From sequence record PQ850631.1: a stretch of 64,000 bases of DNA. One strand, given 5' to 3'. Both the position numbers and the translations under genes were made by a program. The notes beneath the pieces are model-generated. The model did no database searches. It had not been told where the DNA came from and saw only the letters and a list, made by a program, of their open reading frames with translations. Of the stretch, positions 2,247-34,965 are shown one piece after another (the first letter of the stretch is position 1; each line of letters starts with the position of its first letter). The DNA comes from Escherichia phage VerenaGrendelmeier_Bas101.

Positions 2247-4622
2247 ATGAAAATTCTTGGCATAAAACTCTGGGAGAAGACGCAACCAGAAGCCGAACCA
2301 GCGGAGATGCCGCCAGGCGACCCATTGGCACCGTTTGAACGCCTGGAAAGGCGCGGCAGCGGCCAACGCTGGGATAAGACCGAAAGCAACCGCCCGACCT
2401 TTAAAACCGTTGATGACTTTCCTTTATATGAGCCTGATATCAACGGGGACGGTGTTGCAATCATTAAAGGTCGCTCAGTAGATTCAGCAACCGTATCCAA
2501 AAAAGTTATGGATAATGCCTTAAAGAACATAAGTTCAGAAGGGCAGGTGAATCCATACACAGTCCCTATTCAGTTGCAAAACTGGTACTTATCGCAATCA
2601 TTTATCGGATATCAAGCTTGCGCCATCATCGCGCAGCACTGGCTAGTGAACAAGGCTTGTTCCATGGTAGGCCGCGATGCGGTCCGTAAAGGCTGGGAAG
2701 TCAAATCCAGCTCTGAGTCGGAATTGTCAGTACAGGCAAGCGAACGCCTAAAGCAAATTGATAAAGAATTTAATATCAAAGAGCACTTAGTTGAAGCCGA
2801 ACGATTCAAGAATATTTTTGGCATCCGCGTCATCATATTTGATGTGCGCAGTGATGACCCAGAATATTATAGCAAACCTTTTAACATCGATGGCGTGACA
2901 AAGGGGTCTTATAAGGGAATCATTCAGGTTGACCCTTATTGGATGATGCCATTCTTGACATCTGAAAACACTGCAGACCCTGCATCACAGCATTTTTATG
3001 ATCCAGAATATTGGGTGATCAGCGGACAACGTTATCACCGCAGCCACCTCATAATCTTGCGCAACGATGAGCCAGCTGATATTCTCAAGCCGACTTATAT
3101 CTATGGCGGCATTCCTTTGACTCAGCAGATTTATGAACGTATCTATGCCGCTGAACGTACCGCTAACGAAGCTCCATTGCTGGCGATGTCTAAGCGTACA
3201 ACCACGCTGCGGACCGACGTTGACAAGGCGATTGCCAATGAGCGGTCGTTTGCCGAACGTTTGATGATGTGGATTAAGTACCGCGACAACTATGCGGTAA
3301 AAGTACTTGGTCAGAAAGAAGAGATGGACCAGTTTGACATCAACTTGTCAGACTTCGACAGCATCATCATGAACCAGTACCAGCTGGTGGCCGCAATCGC
3401 AAAAGTTCCGTCGACAAAACTGTTAGGGACGTCACCTAAAGGCTTTAACGCCACTGGTGAGTTCGAAATGGTCAGCTATCACGAAGAATTGGAGACTTGT
3501 CAGCAGCACGATTTGACGAAGATTCTTGACCGTCACTACAAAATCCTTTTGAAATCTGAAGGTGTTGAAGTCGACGTTAAAGTGGCATGGGAGCCAGTTG
3601 GTTCACTTACTGCTACTCAACTTGCAGAGATTAACGACAAACGAGCGAATACTGGTAAGACTCTCATTGATGCTGGCGTCATCTCCCCTGATGAAGAGCG
3701 CGACCGCATCAAAGACGACAAAAACAGCGGCTACAACCGTTTGCCAGAAGATACAGCAGAAGAAACCCCAGGGATGTCTCCAGAGAATATGGCATTGCTT
3801 GGCAAGTCCGCTGGTGAAGTTCTGCAAGGTAAGGCCGATATTGAACAGGCTAAGGCTGATGTTGTCAAGATGGGCGGCCAGTTCTATAGCGAGACTGGTA
3901 TCATGCCGGAAGGTGCCGCGCGCGGTGAGTTGGCAGAAAACCCTGACAGGGCACCAGTTGAGATTAACATGGATGATACCGATGACGAATCAAGCCATCA
4001 CGTTGATGTTCTAACGCAACTTAAAGAGGGTCTGGAGGGTATTGCTGACTATTACCTTAAAGAAGGTCAGGACGTGGATTTTGACCCTCAAAAAGATGCA
4101 AGGTCGGTGCAACCGTCTACGCTTCCAAGCGTAAAAGGAAATGTCGTAAACTTGCGACACAATGTAGGGAAGATGGATGCCGCATCGCTGCCTAAGATGA
4201 AGTTGCACGGGATGATTCTTGGTATTGAGAATCCTCGCAACAGCATTCGCAGGGGTAACAGTCTTGATGGTGAATGGGCAGTTAAGATGCCGCACCATTA
4301 CGGATTCATCAAAGGAACCAAGGGTGCTGATGGTGATGAAGTCGACTGCTTTGTTGGACCAAATATGAAGTCGCCTAAAGTATTCATCATTAACCAAAAT
4401 GATAATTATTCTGGCGAATTTGATGAACACAAGTGTATGCTTGGATTCGATTCAGCAGAAGAAGCGAAAGAAGCTTATCAGGCATCATTTGGTAACGGTT
4501 GGAATGGATTCGACTCAATCCACGAATTGGATGTAGACTCATTCAAGGAGTGGTTGAAGGGTGATTGCTCTCAAGCATATGGAGCACTCAATAATCCTAC
4601 TAATTCACCGAAGCAAGGTTGA
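2247..4622 (+). CDS. portal-like protein with C-terminal inorganic-pyrophosphatase-like domain
   Basis: large ORF after terminase; start moved to ATG 2247 behind AGGTGG RBS; C-terminal HHYGFIKGT..DGDEVDCFV and AEEAKEAYQASF resemble family I PPase. Confidence 0.55.
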   Translation: MKILGIKLWEKTQPEAEPAEMPPGDPLAPFERLERRGSGQRWDKTESNRPTFKTVDDFPLYEPDINGDGVAIIKGRSVDSATVSKKVMDNALKNISSEGQVNPYTVPIQLQNWYLSQSFIGYQACAIIAQHWLVNKACSMVGRDAVRKGWEVKSSSESELSVQASERLKQIDKEFNIKEHLVEAERFKNIFGIRVIIFDVRSDDPEYYSKPFNIDGVTKGSYKGIIQVDPYWMMPFLTSENTADPASQHFYDPEYWVISGQRYHRSHLIILRNDEPADILKPTYIYGGIPLTQQIYERIYAAERTANEAPLLAMSKRTTTLRTDVDKAIANERSFAERLMMWIKYRDNYAVKVLGQKEEMDQFDINLSDFDSIIMNQYQLVAAIAKVPSTKLLGTSPKGFNATGEFEMVSYHEELETCQQHDLTKILDRHYKILLKSEGVEVDVKVAWEPVGSLTATQLAEINDKRANTGKTLIDAGVISPDEERDRIKDDKNSGYNRLPEDTAEETPGMSPENMALLGKSAGEVLQGKADIEQAKADVVKMGGQFYSETGIMPEGAARGELAENPDRAPVEINMDDTDDESSHHVDVLTQLKEGLEGIADYYLKEGQDVDFDPQKDARSVQPSTLPSVKGNVVNLRHNVGKMDAASLPKMKLHGMILGIENPRNSIRRGNSLDGEWAVKMPHHYGFIKGTKGADGDEVDCFVGPNMKSPKVFIINQNDNYSGEFDEHKCMLGFDSAEEAKEAYQASFGNGWNGFDSIHELDVDSFKEWLKGDCSQAYGALNNPTNSPKQG

Positions 4623-4623
4623 T

Positions 4624-5475
4624 ATGGCTTTTAAAGCTTCGAAAAAACGTGAACGCCGCTCACCCGATAGAATCGGGCGCGGCAGTCCGATAATCCCATC
4701 CAACGCTATTGCGATGGCCTATCGTCGTGAGATGAAAGGTCTTTGCTATGCGATGATTGACGACTATCAAGCAGGAATTGCTGAGTGGCTTGAAAAGAAG
4801 CAGGTGAAAAAGTTCTTTGCGCAAGACTCTGCTGATTCAACTTTTCAGACCTTGATGAAGCGCCTTCAACTGAAATGGGCAAAAGCATTCGCCCGTGTTG
4901 GGTCAAAGATTGCTGCAGATTTCATCAAGTCAGTTGAAAAGGGTGCGACTTCTGCTACATTCGCAAGTCTTAAATCTGCAGGAATAGAAGCGCCAAAAGC
5001 CACATATAATAAATTCGTTGAGAACACTCTTAAAACAAGCGAGACGTTCAACACGACTCTAGTGACTAAGGTTGGCGAGGATATTCACAACAGGGTGTAC
5101 GAAGCGGTGATGCTTTCGCTGACTTCGCCAGACCCAGCGCAGCAAGGCACATCCGGCATTCAGGCGGCACTAAGGAATGTAAAACAATTCTCTGCAAAAC
5201 GCGTAGACCTTATCGCCAAAGACCAAACGAGCAAACTTTATTGCGTATTAAGTGATGAAAGGATGCGACAGAATGGCGTTGAGGAATTTGAGTGGGCGCA
5301 TTCAGGAGCAGGCAAAGAGCCGCGAATATCACATGAGCACGTCGACGGCATGAGATTCAAGCTTGATGACAAACGCTTATGGGAAGTAGGTGGAGAACTT
5401 AAGTTCAAAAAGGGTGACATCGGTCCTCCTGGATGGGCAATACACTGCAAGTGCAGAAAAATACCAATTATCTGA
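4624..5475 (+). CDS. head morphogenesis protein (MuF / SPP1 gp7-like)
   Basis: follows portal; start taken at ATG 4624 just after portal stop; family assignment from position and C-terminal region, not searched. Confidence 0.5.
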   Translation: MAFKASKKRERRSPDRIGRGSPIIPSNAIAMAYRREMKGLCYAMIDDYQAGIAEWLEKKQVKKFFAQDSADSTFQTLMKRLQLKWAKAFARVGSKIAADFIKSVEKGATSATFASLKSAGIEAPKATYNKFVENTLKTSETFNTTLVTKVGEDIHNRVYEAVMLSLTSPDPAQQGTSGIQAALRNVKQFSAKRVDLIAKDQTSKLYCVLSDERMRQNGVEEFEWAHSGAGKEPRISHEHVDGMRFKLDDKRLWEVGGELKFKKGDIGPPGWAIHCKCRKIPII

Positions 5476-27871: not shown

Positions 27872-28516
27872 ATGATTAATGCAAACGTGATATCTAAAGG
27901 GACCGGATGCAGCATGGATGTCGCAGAGAAATGGGTGGACCCTTTCAAGCAGGCTTGTGAGCACTACGGAATCAAAAGCAAGAACGCCATCGCGGCGTTG
28001 CTTGCAAACGTAGGAGTGGAAACAGGCAGTCTGAAGACATTTGTGGAAAACTTGAATTATTCCGCTCAAGGTCTTGCTAATACATGGCCTAGCCGTTACA
28101 GCGCCAGCGGTCGTTTCGGCGGTGCACCCAACTCCTTGGCATTGTCGATTGCCCGTAAACCAATGGAAATCGCCAATAATACATATGCAAACCGCATGGG
28201 CAACGGTTCGGTAGCATCGGGAGACGGTTGGAAGTACCGTGGCCGTGGTGCCATTCAGCTGACTGGAAAGGATAACTATGCAGATTATTCAAAGCAATCA
28301 GGCTATGACGCATTGAACAATCCTGATATTCTGACTGAACCAAAATACATCGCTGACAGCGCGGCATGGTTCTTTAAGAATAGCGGCTGTATTCCTCTTG
28401 CCGATGCGGGTGCATTTGATTCGACTGTTAAGCGGATTAACGGGGCCGCGCCGAATACGGCTAACCATGGGGATTTGCGACGGAAGCGTTACAAGGATGC
28501 ACTAGCAGTTATGTAA
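27872..28516 (+). CDS. endolysin (GH19 / predicted-chitinase-like)
   Basis: 214 aa; AIAALLANVGVETGSLKTFVENLNYS and GAIQLTGKDNY motifs typical of this lysin family; last gene of late operon. Confidence 0.6.
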   Translation: MINANVISKGTGCSMDVAEKWVDPFKQACEHYGIKSKNAIAALLANVGVETGSLKTFVENLNYSAQGLANTWPSRYSASGRFGGAPNSLALSIARKPMEIANNTYANRMGNGSVASGDGWKYRGRGAIQLTGKDNYADYSKQSGYDALNNPDILTEPKYIADSAAWFFKNSGCIPLADAGAFDSTVKRINGAAPNTANHGDLRRKRYKDALAVM

Positions 28517-28548
28517 GAAAAAGGCCCATATGGGCCTTTGTTTATTTT
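28512..28548. terminator. bidirectional rho-independent terminator
   Basis: AGGCCCA / TGGGCCT stem 28522-28537 flanked by an A-run upstream and T-run downstream; between convergent endolysin and minus-strand genes. Confidence 0.65.
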
Positions 28549-28772
28549 ACGGCTTCAACCTGGACGGGCGGCGCGGAGCTTGTATCAATGTCTGGCAAGT
28601 CGAAGTAATACCCCGCCATGCCAATCACGCCAACAATCGCGGCCCGTGCCACCTTGTTGCTAATTGACTCCCCAATAAGCTTTACCAACAGGGACAAGAT
28701 TTGAGACGTCAAAGCCTTTTTCAGCCTTTTGTTTTCTTCCAAATCTTTCTGCATAACTACCACCCATGTCAA
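28542..28772 (-). CDS. small single-pass membrane protein (holin-like candidate)
   Basis: 76 aa, one hydrophobic helix AAIVGVIGMAGYYF; start overlaps upstream gene stop. Confidence 0.4.
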   Translation of the reverse strand: MTWVVVMQKDLEENKRLKKALTSQILSLLVKLIGESISNKVARAAIVGVIGMAGYYFDLPDIDTSSAPPVQVEAVK

Positions 28773-29311
28773 CGCACATCCTGTGTCTTAACATTACCTG
28801 AAGCATCTCTTAAGGGCAGTGGATAGTAGGCCATTTGGTAGTCTGATACGCCTTCAACATGATAAAACACGATTACGTCTTTGCTGTTGATGAGCATGTT
28901 AACGACATCTGATTTATCTTCTGGAGTAAGTATGAGTGCGCCGCCTGTCCTGCTGTCTACTGCAACAGGGTATGTCTTGTCGACAAGGCCGCTGTCCAAT
29001 GTATTATACCTGACAACGATTTCAGGGGCATCAACTTTTGCAATTGACATTCCGAACACAAACGACACGACTTGGCGACCGCGATCATTCATTACGCACA
29101 TCTTTTCCTTGTCAAACCTTTCCTTTATCACATCGTATTTGTTCCAGCAAAATTCGAACGATTGGCCGTTGTTAAAATATCGAGTTAATACTTTTGCATT
29201 GCTGTTTGGCGGCGTAAACATACTTTCAGCCGCAGCACTTTTGGTGAAGAACAAAACTGTCAGCATAGCCATGATGATGATCAAAACAATCTTTAAATTT
29301 TTTGATTTCAT
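28769..29311 (-). CDS. secreted or membrane-anchored protein
   Basis: 180 aa; N-terminal signal-like KIVLIIIMAMLTVLFFTKSAAAES; AAGGTG RBS. Confidence 0.45.
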   Translation of the reverse strand: MKSKNLKIVLIIIMAMLTVLFFTKSAAAESMFTPPNSNAKVLTRYFNNGQSFEFCWNKYDVIKERFDKEKMCVMNDRGRQVVSFVFGMSIAKVDAPEIVVRYNTLDSGLVDKTYPVAVDSRTGGALILTPEDKSDVVNMLINSKDVIVFYHVEGVSDYQMAYYPLPLRDASGNVKTQDVR

Positions 29312-30465: not shown

Positions 30466-31055
30466 TCAAACTCCTTATTCATCACTTGTTCCAGCGCATA
30501 GGCGTAAGCCTGATCAGTCGATTTGATGAATGTGCCGTTGTACATGACACCTTTTCGGTCTTTAATGTCTTCGTAGGCCGCTTGCGCACAGTCGGATAAG
30601 CGAAGGCCATAATCATGAGCTACGCCGGAAAGGTAATCGGATGCGGCCATGATGGTCACGTCAATATCCATGGTCTGATTCTTAGCGATTGCATCACCAA
30701 GTCGTCCAAGGGTCTTTGCCAGGCGAAGGATAAATGAATGAGGGTGAGCACCTTTATCAGCGCAACCGCCGCCATTAATGTTTTCGATTTCAGTACCGTT
30801 TTGCGCTGCCAGGATGGTCAACACAACAAGGCAATCGCCGATGTCGTCCTTAATTGCTGCCTGCAAGTCACAGATGGCTTGCTCTGTATATCCAATTTCA
30901 GGGTCGAAGAACACAAGGTCATGGAGTTGATCAACGTGGTCGGTTAACTCCCCGAACTCGCTGATAAGCTTCGGGTATTGGTCCTTAAGGTCGCAACCTT
31001 GGATGATGTTACGGTCAGAAGCCCACTGGCGAATGTTTGCATAAATCTGTTTCAT
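30462..31055 (-). CDS. MazG-like nucleoside triphosphate pyrophosphohydrolase
   Basis: 197 aa; ISEFGELTDHV and DDIGDCLVVLTILA resemble MazG-type motifs. Confidence 0.45.
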   Translation of the reverse strand: MKQIYANIRQWASDRNIIQGCDLKDQYPKLISEFGELTDHVDQLHDLVFFDPEIGYTEQAICDLQAAIKDDIGDCLVVLTILAAQNGTEIENINGGGCADKGAHPHSFILRLAKTLGRLGDAIAKNQTMDIDVTIMAASDYLSGVAHDYGLRLSDCAQAAYEDIKDRKGVMYNGTFIKSTDQAYAYALEQVMNKEFE

Positions 31056-31570
31056 TTATTTTCCTTTGATGCATTGAATTGATCGATTTTTATTTTAGCC
31101 TGATTATAAGTATCAATCAAGCTATTAACTTTCTCTTTTAATCGATTTGTTTCTGCGGCGAACTGAACAAGAAAACTGACATCTTCTTCTGATAGTCCAC
31201 AGTTTCCTTCTGGGATAGAGAGGCGTCCAGTGGTCGCAGAGTCGGGCATACTCCTGAGTAACTCACGGGAGCAGCTGAGTTGCGCGCGCAACTTGATATT
31301 CCCAGACTTGTAACGAGCAATAGTGTCATCAGCAACCAGTTGCGCTTCCTGGCGACCCTTCTCATATGCCGATGCCGATTCAACCTGTAAAGATGCAATT
31401 TGCTCTTCGAGTGCATTTATCTTGTCCTTACGCTCATTAAGCGATGTCAGATATTGATTATCCTTGACCAGTGATGCGTTGGTTTGCTGCAGGTCTTCAA
31501 CGTATGATCCAGCGGCAAACGCGCCAACAAGGGCCAGAATCTTCAGGAGCGGTACAATTCTTTCTATCAT
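31052..31570 (-). CDS. i-spanin (Rz-like)
   Basis: 172 aa; N-terminal TM helix IVPLLKILALVGAFAAGSYV then long coiled-coil-like region; contains embedded +1-frame lipoprotein ORF. Confidence 0.45.
   Translation of the reverse strand: MIERIVPLLKILALVGAFAAGSYVEDLQQTNASLVKDNQYLTSLNERKDKINALEEQIASLQVESASAYEKGRQEAQLVADDTIARYKSGNIKLRAQLSCSRELLRSMPDSATTGRLSIPEGNCGLSEEDVSFLVQFAAETNRLKEKVNSLIDTYNQAKIKIDQFNASKENK
31138..31365 (-). CDS. o-spanin (Rz1-like), embedded in i-spanin gene
   Basis: alternative-frame ORF with lipoprotein signal and lipobox LLMTLLLVTSLGISSC, then short Pro-containing mature part; start codon uncertain. Confidence 0.35.
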   Translation of the reverse strand: MRRVARKRNWLLMTLLLVTSLGISSCARNSAAPVSYSGVCPTLRPLDASLSQKETVDYQKKMSVFLFSSPQKQID

Positions 31571-31627
31571 GATGCACCAGATAAATAAAAGGCCGCCAAT
31601 CGGCAGCCTTGTTGATTTGATTGTCGA

Positions 31628-32488
31628 TTAAAACTCTTCTGCGTCGGTCGGAGTTTCATTGACAGGACCAGCGGCACCGCTTGCTTCTTCCTGCTTGCTG
31701 CGGTCAATGTTAACGTTGCCGCCAACTACGTCATTGTGGAATGCCTTGGCGACTTCGTACAGACCTTTATCCTGCACCAGACCTTCCAGCTCAAACTTAA
31801 GAACTGACCAGGTGTTGCCGTCTTTGGACTGAGATGCAGTGCCCATGCGAACAATGTTCATAAAGGTCGGCGGCGTTTTCAGACCCTGCGGAGTCTGAAC
31901 TTTCTTCTGCTGCAGAGCGGTCATCAGCATGCGAGACGGCTTGATCATGGAAGAAGTCAGAGACAGCATTGCGCTACCAAATTCACCAGTTTCTTCGTTC
32001 AACAGAATTACGAAGTGGTTGCGTGTATCTGCGTAGTAAGGCGATTTCTTCTCGTGCACCTTGCCGTTTTCGTCCGGCACGAATACCTTACCGTTGATCT
32101 CAACAGCGCGGCCTGCCGCGACTTCTGCATCAACGTGCTCTTTGGTGAATTCACCTTTAAAGCCTTTATCATCGGACTCGCGACCGCCCCAAAGGATGAA
32201 GGTGCGTTTGAATGCGCAAGGGATGATCTGCACGCCTTTCTTGCCGTCATACAACTCACCAGTAACGGTGTTGTAAAGCATGCCAGCTTTTGCGCCAGGA
32301 ACGTGTTTTGGATCATCTTCGTCGACCATAGGAGACATCTTCTGCAGTACGACGATAAAAGGAATGGCATACGCATCGGCATCGGCACCTTCAAAACCAG
32401 CGCCAAAATCGGTCATGTCGACAAAATCAGCCATAGCGGACATCTGGGTGTTTTTCACTGCAACTTCGGTGGTTTCTTTCTTAGACAT
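31628..32488 (-). CDS. putative ssDNA-binding protein
   Basis: 286 aa; acidic C-terminal tail ending ...TDAEEF (SSB-like hallmark); in replication module. Confidence 0.35.
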   Translation of the reverse strand: MSKKETTEVAVKNTQMSAMADFVDMTDFGAGFEGADADAYAIPFIVVLQKMSPMVDEDDPKHVPGAKAGMLYNTVTGELYDGKKGVQIIPCAFKRTFILWGGRESDDKGFKGEFTKEHVDAEVAAGRAVEINGKVFVPDENGKVHEKKSPYYADTRNHFVILLNEETGEFGSAMLSLTSSMIKPSRMLMTALQQKKVQTPQGLKTPPTFMNIVRMGTASQSKDGNTWSVLKFELEGLVQDKGLYEVAKAFHNDVVGGNVNIDRSKQEEASGAAGPVNETPTDAEEF

Positions 32489-32547: not shown

Positions 32548-33105
32548 TTACTTTTTGCTTTTAGGCAAGGTTATTTTAGCTTCTTTGTATTCAAAAACGC
32601 TAATATCTTCACTAACTGGATTGCCCGCTTCCAGCTGTTCTTTTACAAACGACTTCAGTGTAGCAGAATGAACGCCTTGTTTCAACGTGGCTTCAACACC
32701 ATCTTCACGCAGTGCGGCAACAATCTCTTGCGCCTGTTCGATTTCTTCGCGACCGAACTCAGCCGTGACGCTGGACTTGATCAAGCCGCCGTAACCGTTG
32801 TTGACAAGCCAATCGAAAACTTTTAATTCGTTTTCTTTCTTGATTGAAGCATTCACCTTGGACTCGACTTTGATTTTGGTCTTGTCCTCAAGCTTGATTT
32901 CAGACACACCAAGCTCATCCATTACGCCAGGAAGCAGAACAGTTTTGATTTCACTGATGCGCTGCTTTTGCATATCAGCTTCATCTTCAAGCTCTGTCAA
33001 AGCTTCTTGGCGTTCTGCCAGTTCAGATACTAAGCGCGCAAGGCGCTCTTGAATGCTCTCAGGAGCGACCTGCGGCAAATCATCTTCCCAATTAATATTG
33101 CTCAT
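32548..33105 (-). CDS. hypothetical acidic protein
   Basis: 185-aa ORF in replication module. Confidence 0.45.
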   Translation of the reverse strand: MSNINWEDDLPQVAPESIQERLARLVSELAERQEALTELEDEADMQKQRISEIKTVLLPGVMDELGVSEIKLEDKTKIKVESKVNASIKKENELKVFDWLVNNGYGGLIKSSVTAEFGREEIEQAQEIVAALREDGVEATLKQGVHSATLKSFVKEQLEAGNPVSEDISVFEYKEAKITLPKSKK

Positions 33106-33441: not shown

Positions 33442-34965
33442 TTAATTCATCTTTTTGCCGTCGAGGATGTGATCAGCAAGCATAGACTTCATACTTAGTG
33501 ATCGCTGAATTTCTTCGTCGATGGTATCAACACCAATAAAATCAACATACAACACGCTTGATTTGGTGCCGATGCGGTGATTTCGGTCTTCGGATTGCTT
33601 GCGCAGCTCGTTGTCATAGTTGCAAGAATAATAGATTGCCAAGTCGGCAGCGGTAAGCGTGATTCCGATGCCTGCCGCTGCAGCGTGGCAAACCAACACC
33701 TGTGTTCCACCATTCGCGACTGTGTTCTTCTGGAAGTCATCAATTAAGAACTCGCGCTGCTCTTTGGACGTTTCACCGTTGTATACACCAGTGACCACGC
33801 CTTCAGACCCAAGCCAGTCCTTAATCTGGTTCATCTCTTCCTTAAAGATGGCCCAAACGATGAATTTGCGCTCTGGGTCGTCTTCCAGCACCCCTTCCAC
33901 ATAGTCCTTAAAGGCCGTGAATCGTGGGTTGTCTTCCATGTAGACCATCTCATCATACACCTTAACAAAGCCTGATGTCACCTGCTTCATCTTAGTGCGA
34001 GATGCGATCATCTCAAACTTAACGTTTTCTTCTTCGCCTTTGTACTCCATCAGATAGTTGTACTCATTCTTGAGTTCATCGTATACATCGCGCTGCTTAG
34101 GAGACAACTCGAAGTCGATAAACTTGTACACCTTCTCTGGAAGGTCCGGCAAGTATTCCGCTTTTGTCGCACGGAAATAGTGCGGCTCCATCAGCCGGAT
34201 AAGCTTGTCAAGGTTTTTATACATCGGTCGGCCAAACTGGTCTTTGCGCGGCACTTGCGGAATGCCATAACCGTTGCCGCCGATTTTCTTGAGAATGGCC
34301 TGCATCTCTGGGTCGTGCGCTTCAAGCAGCACTGTGAATTCAGAGTTGAATGCACGGAACGATTTGGTGCCGAGCAAGCCAGCTTCAAGGAAGTGATACT
34401 GCATGTAAATATCAGCAGGCGAGCGCGGCAGCGGCGTGCCGGAAAGTATGCGACGGGCCTTTGCCAGCCGTCCCAATTCTACAACCTTGATGGAGCGTTT
34501 GGCTGTGTTATTTTTGATACGCGTCGATTCGTCAATGATCATCAAACAGCGGTACTTCTTCAGGACAGACTCGATGTGTTGATAACCGACTGGTGTGTTG
34601 ACAGTATCGATGTTGAATGAGAAGATGCGCGCAGGCACTTCACCTTCAGGATAGTGATCAGCAAACATCTTCTCCCAAATGGCTTTACCCTTTTTAGTTT
34701 TCATCTTGTCATTTCCGCGCCAGTAATGACCAATCCATTTAATGGAAAGGTGTTCTGGTGCTTCACGACGAATCCAGTTCGAGTGGACACCGTTAGGAGC
34801 GATGACAACCATGGCATCAAATGCGCCAGCGGCGAAGTGTTTTTCAAACTCTGCCAAAGCAGTCCAGGTTTTACCAAGACCCTGTTCCATAAAATAAGCA
34901 AAGTATTTTCTGCGGCCTGCTTTATCAAGCGCCAATAATTGGTGGCGCATCCCTTGTGTTTTCAT
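33442..34965 (-). CDS. SNF2-family helicase
   Basis: 507 aa; Walker A-like GLGKT, DExx-type IIDESTRIKN and SGTPL motifs. Confidence 0.7.
   Translation of the reverse strand: MKTQGMRHQLLALDKAGRRKYFAYFMEQGLGKTWTALAEFEKHFAAGAFDAMVVIAPNGVHSNWIRREAPEHLSIKWIGHYWRGNDKMKTKKGKAIWEKMFADHYPEGEVPARIFSFNIDTVNTPVGYQHIESVLKKYRCLMIIDESTRIKNNTAKRSIKVVELGRLAKARRILSGTPLPRSPADIYMQYHFLEAGLLGTKSFRAFNSEFTVLLEAHDPEMQAILKKIGGNGYGIPQVPRKDQFGRPMYKNLDKLIRLMEPHYFRATKAEYLPDLPEKVYKFIDFELSPKQRDVYDELKNEYNYLMEYKGEEENVKFEMIASRTKMKQVTSGFVKVYDEMVYMEDNPRFTAFKDYVEGVLEDDPERKFIVWAIFKEEMNQIKDWLGSEGVVTGVYNGETSKEQREFLIDDFQKNTVANGGTQVLVCHAAAAGIGITLTAADLAIYYSCNYDNELRKQSEDRNHRIGTKSSVLYVDFIGVDTIDEEIQRSLSMKSMLADHILDGKKMN

Follow-up and report, generated by a model that had tools for sequence, protein, structure and literature searches.

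A very probable two-component spanin in the embedded Rz/Rz1-type gene arrangement, encoded in the replication gene array of a Wifcevirus genome

The window analysed here, a 64,000-nucleotide stretch of DNA from Escherichia phage VerenaGrendelmeier_Bas101 (PQ850631.1), contains a locus that can be regarded with high confidence as a two-component spanin of the genus Wifcevirus, in the embedded arrangement of lambda Rz/Rz1, a functional class taken from Summer 2007 and Kongari 2018. The outer gene, which codes for a 172-aa inner-membrane subunit (i-spanin), is found at 31052..31570 on the minus strand, and a lipoprotein subunit (o-spanin) is encoded within it in the +1 frame (31138..31416, minus strand). 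The assignment of spanin function follows from the architecture of the locus together with homology to annotated spanins. An embedded i-spanin/o-spanin pair had been proposed in the first-pass annotation, and this reading is now supported by a match of the outer protein to PHROG 1327, by selection on both reading frames, by distant homologues and by independent annotation. The strand of the pair had not been stated in the first-pass annotation; its other descriptive points on the open reading frames (ORFs) were correct. A literature search found no experimental paper on the Wifcevirus spanin family.

The 2.2 kb around the spanin locus showed 93–98% nucleotide identity to 28 phage-collection records, all of them E. 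coli or Shigella myophages of the genus Wifcevirus. ECML-117, WFH, WFC, FEC19, Mansfield and Bas98-100 are among these records. By this nucleotide comparison, the window is assigned to Wifcevirus, as an E. coli myophage resembling ECML-117 and Mansfield, and its numbering is collinear with phage HansTraber_Bas100 at an offset of 10. The plus strand carries a structural module that runs from terminase to tail fibre, with an endolysin as its last gene (27872..28516). This endolysin is GH19/chitinase-like, has no N-terminal transmembrane domain (TMD) and matches PHROG 181 (endolysin, E = 8.5e-70); the counterpart gene is also labelled endolysin in the Mansfield and Bas100 records. In lysis it would act together with the spanins. 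Beyond the structural module, at about 28.5–46 kb, the minus strand carries a module for replication and nucleotide metabolism. The earlier statement that the spanin pair is located 3 kb from the endolysin agrees with measurement, as the gap from the endolysin to the spanin gene is 2.5 kb at the 3′ end of the latter and approximately 3 kb at its start, with the two genes on opposite strands. A holin was not identified within the window, where screening of small proteins for two or more TMDs returned only antisense or alternative-frame artefacts.

The i-spanin gene is surrounded by a same-strand array of Pam3 gp34-like, MazG-like, ligase, helicase and polymerase genes. An ATGA sequence (31052..31055, minus strand) combines its stop codon with the start codon of the downstream gene, which places the spanin pair inside the minus-strand replication and nucleotide-metabolism array. 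Of the two neighbours named in the first-pass annotation, the MazG-like gene downstream was confirmed (PHROG 1992, E = 5.8e-62), but the label of SSB-like for the upstream gene is unsupported, though not disproved. The upstream product is Pam3 gp34-like (PF23977, E = 4e-86; PHROG 2402, function unknown), and no link to SSB was found for it in Pfam, PHROG or PDB sequence searches. The PDB sequence search gave no relative of this protein, and the literature on Pam3 gp34 did not clarify the role of the gene. An intrinsic-terminator-like hairpin on the minus strand (31579..31610), composed of a 9-bp stem with six G-C pairs and a T-run, ends approximately 10–18 nt upstream of the i-spanin ATG. This hairpin is near-invariant across 19 Wifcevirus sequences, and the records of Mansfield and WFH label it a terminator. 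The i-spanin start itself has only a weak Shine-Dalgarno sequence, GGTG.

The 172-aa product of the outer gene matches PHROG 1327 (“Rz-like spanin”) with E = 4.6e-26, residues 6–160 aligning with profile positions 9–156 of 158. It is 95–99% identical to Wifcevirus proteins labelled i-spanin or Rz-like spanin, and it differs from most of these relatives at allelic positions, e.g. A35V, E96A, V108M and R132S. The N-terminal transmembrane helix reported from the first reading is clearly present at approximately residues 5–22, with peak hydrophobicity at residues 5–19 (IVPLLKILALVGAFA; mean Kyte-Doolittle value 2.33, 15-residue window). A single-sequence AlphaFold2 model of moderate confidence (mean pLDDT 74) predicts a helix at residues 5–106, a linker at approximately residues 107–127, which is of low confidence (pLDDT < 50 at residues 110–124), and a second helix at residues 128–170. 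The long coiled-coil-like region that had been noted was therefore borne out only in part, as the model has both helices, but in a crude heptad a/d test the C-terminal helix was significant (residues 128–170; 0.67 versus 0.46, p ~0.01) and the helix at residues 24–106 was not. For the ECML-117 i-spanin, one coiled-coil segment is predicted in the supplement to a census of phage spanins (PMC6139136). Two Cys residues, Cys100 and Cys124, are located on the periplasmic side of the protein. A Pfam scan of the i-spanin returned no spanin family and only weak coiled-coil matches at chance level, and comparison with PDB sequences returned nothing meaningful. A scan of IMG/VR with the i-spanin retrieved only four near-identical Wifcevirus contigs, which added no diversity.

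The nested ORF begins 154 nt into the outer gene, i.e. in the +1 frame, and lies wholly inside 31052..31570. It codes for 92 aa when read from the ATG at 31416, or for 75 aa from the ATG at 31365. A +1-frame lipoprotein with the lipobox LGISSC had been recognized previously, and this motif was recovered as part of a PROSITE-type lipobox, LLVTSLGISSC. The codon of the lipobox Cys is located at 31288..31290, which is residue 43 or residue 26 when counted from ATG 31416 or ATG 31365 respectively. In the 75-aa form, pattern matching and hydropathy predict a lipoprotein signal peptide of 25 residues (MRRVARKRNWLLMTLLLVTSLGISS; 31291..31365, minus strand) with R/K within its first seven residues and cleavage before the Cys. 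The mature o-spanin consists of 50 aa with four Pro, in agreement with the short Pro-containing mature part described at first, and has Ala at position +2 and one further Cys (C40 of the 75-aa form, C15 of the mature part). Its identity to the Wifcevirus counterparts is 91–99%. Neither Pfam nor PHROG gave a significant match to the embedded product; the best PHROG match had E = 0.029, and the matches at E ~0.03–0.1 fell on the signal-peptide region. A unimolecular spanin of the T1 gp11 type was also considered and ruled out. The 172-aa protein has an N-terminal TMD, with neither a lipobox pattern nor a C-terminal hydrophobic segment, and the embedded protein has no C-terminal TMD.

Distant relatives of both subunits were found by tblastn, in which either query, the i-spanin or the 75-aa o-spanin, retrieved the Yersinia phages PY54, P840 and P744 as well as the Pantoea phages LIET2 and Nafs113. 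In all four loci that were read in detail (PY54, P744, LIET2 and Nafs113), a lipoprotein is encoded in the +1 frame of the i-spanin homologue. The PY54 pair (ORF63 and its nested o-spanin) and the pairs of LIET2, Nafs113 and P744/P840 are homologous to that of the window and, like it, have the embedded +1 arrangement. In an alignment with four distant relatives, identity to the window proteins was 43–45% for the o-spanins and 23–30% for the i-spanins, and in pairwise comparison with PY54 it was 51% (E = 4e-17) and 29% (E = 7e-22) respectively. The distant o-spanins have the motif I-S-[GS]-C...CP...D..L...D...MS.FLF in common, in which the lipobox I-S-[GS]-C is invariant, and their signal peptides are approximately 15–20 residues long, without an upstream extension. 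Cys100 and Cys124 of the i-spanin and the second Cys of the o-spanin are invariant in 4/4 distant homologues. Two-component spanins generally carry periplasmic Cys residues, a rule with which the invariant Cys in both subunits are in accord (PMC6139136).

The genomic position of the pair differs among these phages. PY54 has a cassette of holin, endolysin and spanin, in which the pair directly follows the holin and endolysin genes, and this position ties the family to lysis independently of architecture. The pairs of Wifcevirus, Lietduovirus (LIET2 and Nafs113) and P744, unlike that of PY54, are found among early or replication-type genes, the P744 homologue following an exonuclease gene. In the 2018 census, ECML-117 and PY54 were each placed in a separate singleton spanin family (PMC6139136). 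The alignments described above indicate that the two sets of spanins belong to one family, homologous in both frames.

An alternative to be weighed against the embedded pair is that the 172-aa protein alone is real, and that the nested ORF arises as a by-product of the sequence around it and is not translated. The frequency with which such an ORF may arise was estimated by holding the outer protein fixed and resampling synonymous codons or, alternatively, permuting codons. A replicate was scored when another frame contained an ORF with an initiation codon and a basic n-region, followed by a lipobox and no fewer than 20 residues beyond it. Lipoprotein-like ORFs of this kind appeared in 4.3% of synonymous resamplings and in 0.19% of codon permutations, and weak look-alikes were present in two other ORFs among the 88 ORFs of at least 100 aa in the window. 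These frequencies, as well as the failure of the embedded product to match any PHROG or Pfam entry significantly, speak for a by-product. The motif alone is not rare enough, so the case for a nested gene rests on conservation. In an alignment of the window with 18 Wifcevirus loci (19 sequences, representing 18 distinct DNA alleles and 15 distinct protein alleles), the nested ORF retains its two ATGs, its lipobox Cys and its stop in 19/19, and the lipobox-compatible start codon, whose absence from relatives the first-pass annotation had named as a refutation, is thus found throughout. The mature o-spanin has a near-invariant core in the same 19 sequences, YSGVCPTLR.LDASLSQKETVDYQK and MS.FLFSSPQK. 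With a +1 offset, each third codon position of the outer gene doubles as a second position of the nested one. Sites with third-position variation numbered 119/287 in the upstream Pam3 gp34-like gene, 113/198 in the downstream MazG-like gene and 20/80 in the i-spanin gene outside the overlap, compared with 8/93 inside the overlap. The difference is significant against both the rest of the i-spanin gene (Fisher p = 0.004) and the flanking genes combined (232/485; p = 5e-14). Across the overlap only, the outer frame is therefore depleted of synonymous-site variation, approximately 3-fold when measured against the remainder of the gene and approximately 5.5-fold against the flanking genes. In outer-gene numbering, third-position variation halts at nt 132 and returns at nt 438, 441 and 444; the nested stop codon occupies nt 431–433, so that variation is back 5 nt later, which gives a sharp 3′ boundary. 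The codon-position check suggested by the first-pass annotation was hence positive. On this pattern of conservation, the nested +1 frame is shown to be dual-coding, with both frames under purifying selection. Among the distant phages, moreover, conservation is higher for the embedded than for the outer protein (43–51% versus 23–30% identity). A translated nested gene is therefore preferred, and an untranslated by-product is extremely improbable. A chance origin of the embedded ORF is ruled out by the conservation evidence, despite the 4.3% obtained under synonymous resampling.

A membrane-anchored helical protein of 172 aa might alternatively serve in replication or nucleotide metabolism, e.g. 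by tethering the replisome to the membrane, and have no role in lysis. Such a role would suit the same-strand gene array described above, including the overlap between the i-spanin stop codon and the MazG start. It would also suit the lack of sequence similarity to lambda Rz. The i-spanin gave no match to Pfam PF03245 (Phage_lysis, the lambda Rz family) at E <= 0.1, and BLASTP with manually entered lambda sequences reached E = 21 for Rz, while for Rz1 no alignment was obtained. However, the same protein matches the Rz-like spanins of PHROG 1327, its PY54 homologue directly follows a holin and an endolysin, and the co-conserved embedded outer-membrane lipoprotein has no obvious role in replication. 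Distance from the lysis genes is also a feature of the T4 spanin genes PseT.3/PseT.2, which are unlinked to the holin and endolysin and lie among early/middle genes (PMC6139136). The displaced position of the window pair is real but not unusual, and a function in replication or nucleotide metabolism in place of lysis is very unlikely. Both the T4 and the window genes encode a two-component spanin away from the lysis genes; the T4 genes are separated from each other, whereas the window pair is embedded.

The embedded spanin pair of Wifcevirus is outside the lambda Rz sequence family and, by analogy, would be Rz/Rz1-like in its working as well as its arrangement. Like the outer protein of the window, lambda Rz is a type II inner-membrane protein with a helix-linker-helix organization and two periplasmic Cys, and in both systems the gene for the outer-membrane lipoprotein is wholly nested in the +1 frame. 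A mechanism of membrane fusion is presumed to be common to the two. They differ in that no sequence similarity is detectable and in that the window pair lies apart from the endolysin. The mature o-spanin of the window is also less proline-rich (4/50) and lacks the penta-proline stretch of lambda. To our knowledge, a sequence relationship between T4 PseT.3/PseT.2 and the window spanins is not to be expected either.

The N-terminal transmembrane helix would anchor the i-spanin in the inner membrane, with its helical domain in the periplasm. The o-spanin is translated from the +1 frame and, by analogy with lambda Rz/Rz1, would be exported, lipidated at the lipobox Cys and then sorted to the outer membrane. 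Outer-membrane sorting is suggested by the +2 residue, which is Ala or Ser and not Asp. The C-terminal parts of the two subunits would bind each other to form a periplasm-spanning complex, probably stabilized by homotypic disulfides via the conserved Cys, and the peptidoglycan mesh would keep this complex inactive. Destruction of the wall by holin and endolysin would then permit a conformational change, leading to fusion of the inner and outer membranes and completion of lysis. Lambda spanins build up without harm for as long as they are restrained by the peptidoglycan, which the endolysin later removes. Because a spanin acts only after wall removal, early expression from a replication operon should be unproblematic. 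Early expression would also be consistent with the place of the pair in the minus-strand array, where a conserved terminator and a weak ribosome-binding site precede it.

The start codon of the o-spanin is a separate question, which leaves the identity of the spanin pair as it is. Choice of the ATG at 31365 gives a textbook signal peptide, but this codon has no Shine-Dalgarno sequence, whereas the ATG at 31416 has a good one (AAGGA, 8-nt spacer). Translation from ATG 31416 would produce a 92-aa precursor with an unusually long, very basic signal peptide of 42 residues, possibly beside the 75-aa form. Third positions of the outer frame are invariant from nt 133 to nt 212, an onset upstream of the first ATG, and the M1–M18 segment has 0/17 variable third positions versus 20/80 elsewhere (p = 0.02). 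This early onset of suppression is a slight argument for initiation at ATG 31416, or for a different constraint acting in that segment. The upstream ATG was also picked by the annotators of Mansfield and Bas98-100. On the other hand, the PROSITE lipoprotein rule places the Cys within residues 15–35, and residue 43, its position when counted from ATG 31416, is past that range. The short signal peptides of the distant homologues (approximately 15–20 residues), which have no extension, also argue against the upstream start, as does protein-level variation in 3/17 codons of the extension. The 75-aa form was the one taken in the census, the supplement of which gives the ECML-117 i-spanin sequence and a 75-aa o-spanin starting 205 nt into the i-spanin gene, with the same upstream Shine-Dalgarno context as in the window (PMC6139136). 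Use of ATG 31416 is thus a serious possibility, although we consider it somewhat doubtful. A broader and more tentative proposal, which we consider rather unlikely, is that the upstream start yields a 92-aa precursor with a conserved, highly basic extension of 17 residues, or else two isoforms, and that the terminator approximately 10–18 nt ahead of the i-spanin gene, itself weakly initiated, may join in setting spanin dosage from an early/middle replication operon and not from a late lysis cassette.

The embedded spanin pair has already been annotated and catalogued in Wifcevirus and is ordinary in that sense. The two genes are labelled i-spanin and o-spanin in phage Mansfield (CPT_Mansfield_057/058) and “Rz-like spanin” and “o-spanin” in Bas98, Bas99 and Bas100, and RefSeq re-annotation applies “Rz-like spanin” to the outer gene of ECML-117, WFH, WFC and FEC19. 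The census of Kongari et al. (2018) listed ECML-117 as an embedded two-component spanin with a singleton family for both subunits (PMC6139136). The pairs of ECML-117, Mansfield and Bas98-100 are the same genes as those of the window, identical in nesting, genome position and neighbours, and the differences between them are allelic only. In approximately half of the deposited Wifcevirus records, the outer gene is still called a “hypothetical protein”, and the nested o-spanin is missing from most. The main value of the present analysis is accordingly for annotation, in that the codon-position test gives the spanin labels a quantitative basis; no major question is opened or resolved by the Wifcevirus pair. 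The new points are minor ones, namely the ambiguous o-spanin start, the conserved upstream terminator and the homology of two “singleton” families. The last of these adds a small data point on the mobility of spanin genes, as the ECML-117/PY54 family is found both within and outside classical lysis cassettes.

The spanins of the ECML-117 type, named for a Wifcevirus relative of Bas101, and those of the PY54 type were placed in separate singleton families in the 2018 spanin census (PMC6139136). Despite this split, the two types are homologous in both reading frames, with 29% identity between the i-spanins (E = 7e-22) and 51% between the o-spanins (E = 4e-17). The Lietduovirus phages and Yersinia phage P744 also belong to this joined family. 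The spanin loci of these relatives are located at 2471..2992 in PY54 (locus L008), 4734..5234 in both LIET2 (L007) and Nafs113 (L010), and 2501..2962 in P744 (L009), and the embedded o-spanin is unannotated in all four records. Pantoea phage Nafs113 additionally encodes a separate 88-aa lipoprotein, ORF67 (MKKIILAALVAAAALSVGC...; L010 4467..4733, +), which lies directly 5' of the i-spanin gene, is labelled 'putative o-spanin' in the record and has a counterpart in LIET2. However, the homologue of the PY54 and Wifcevirus o-spanins in both Nafs113 and LIET2 is the ORF nested in the i-spanin gene, not ORF67. A PHROG search with the 88-aa protein returned no match.

In Bas101, the o-spanin nested in the i-spanin gene has two candidate start codons, and public sources differ in the one chosen. 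The ATG at 31416 (-) yields a 92-aa product and is preceded by a good Shine-Dalgarno sequence (AAGGA), whereas the ATG at 31365 (-) lacks one and yields a 75-aa product with a textbook lipoprotein signal. Synonymous variation in the outer frame is gone from nt 133 on, before the first of these ATGs, and none of the 17 outer-frame synonymous sites between them is variable (p = 0.02). Under loose criteria, lipobox-like ORFs were also detected in alternative frames of two other genes, the gp34-like gene (31628..32488, -) and the helicase gene (33442..34965, -). These have no convincing signal peptide and look like chance matches; they serve to gauge the false-positive rate, at approximately 2 of 87 genes.

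The upstream neighbour of the spanin gene, called SSB-like in the first-pass annotation, is Pam3 gp34-like (31628..32488, -; PF23977, E = 4e-86), and the SSB-like label found no support. No sequence relative of this protein was found in the PDB. The second gene upstream is Pam3 gp33-like (32548..33105, -; DUF7307, E = 3e-37), and the two form a conserved pair within the replication module. Between the gp34-like and i-spanin genes lies a terminator-like hairpin (AAGGCTGCCGATTGGCGGCCTT) followed by a T-run (31579..31610, -). Its sequence hardly varies among 19 Wifcevirus genomes' copies, and the Mansfield and WFH records list it as a terminator. The i-spanin ATG is approximately 10-18 nt downstream of the hairpin's end and has only a weak Shine-Dalgarno sequence, GGTG. 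The conserved hairpin and this weak site together suggest that spanin expression depends on read-through out of the replication genes upstream.

Near the endolysin gene (27872..28516, +), a holin is neither annotated nor evident, and when small proteins with two or more TMDs were sought, spurious ORFs alone came up. The nearest membrane-protein candidates are the products of two small genes convergent with the endolysin gene. One (28542..28772, -; PHROG 5165) is 70-76 aa long and has a single hydrophobic segment; the other (28769..29311, -), of 180 aa, begins with a signal or TMD at its N terminus.

Some relatives have one additional A in the AAAGG(A)AAAATAA run at the i-spanin gene's 3' end (31052..31075, -). 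These are the SP13/WFC-type alleles, the 170-residue i-spanin matches, in which the extra A shifts the frame at the final codons. The ATGA stop/start overlap of the i-spanin gene with the downstream MazG-like gene is expected to be lost in these alleles, and the annotated SP13 i-spanin CDS adjoins the MazG gene without overlap.
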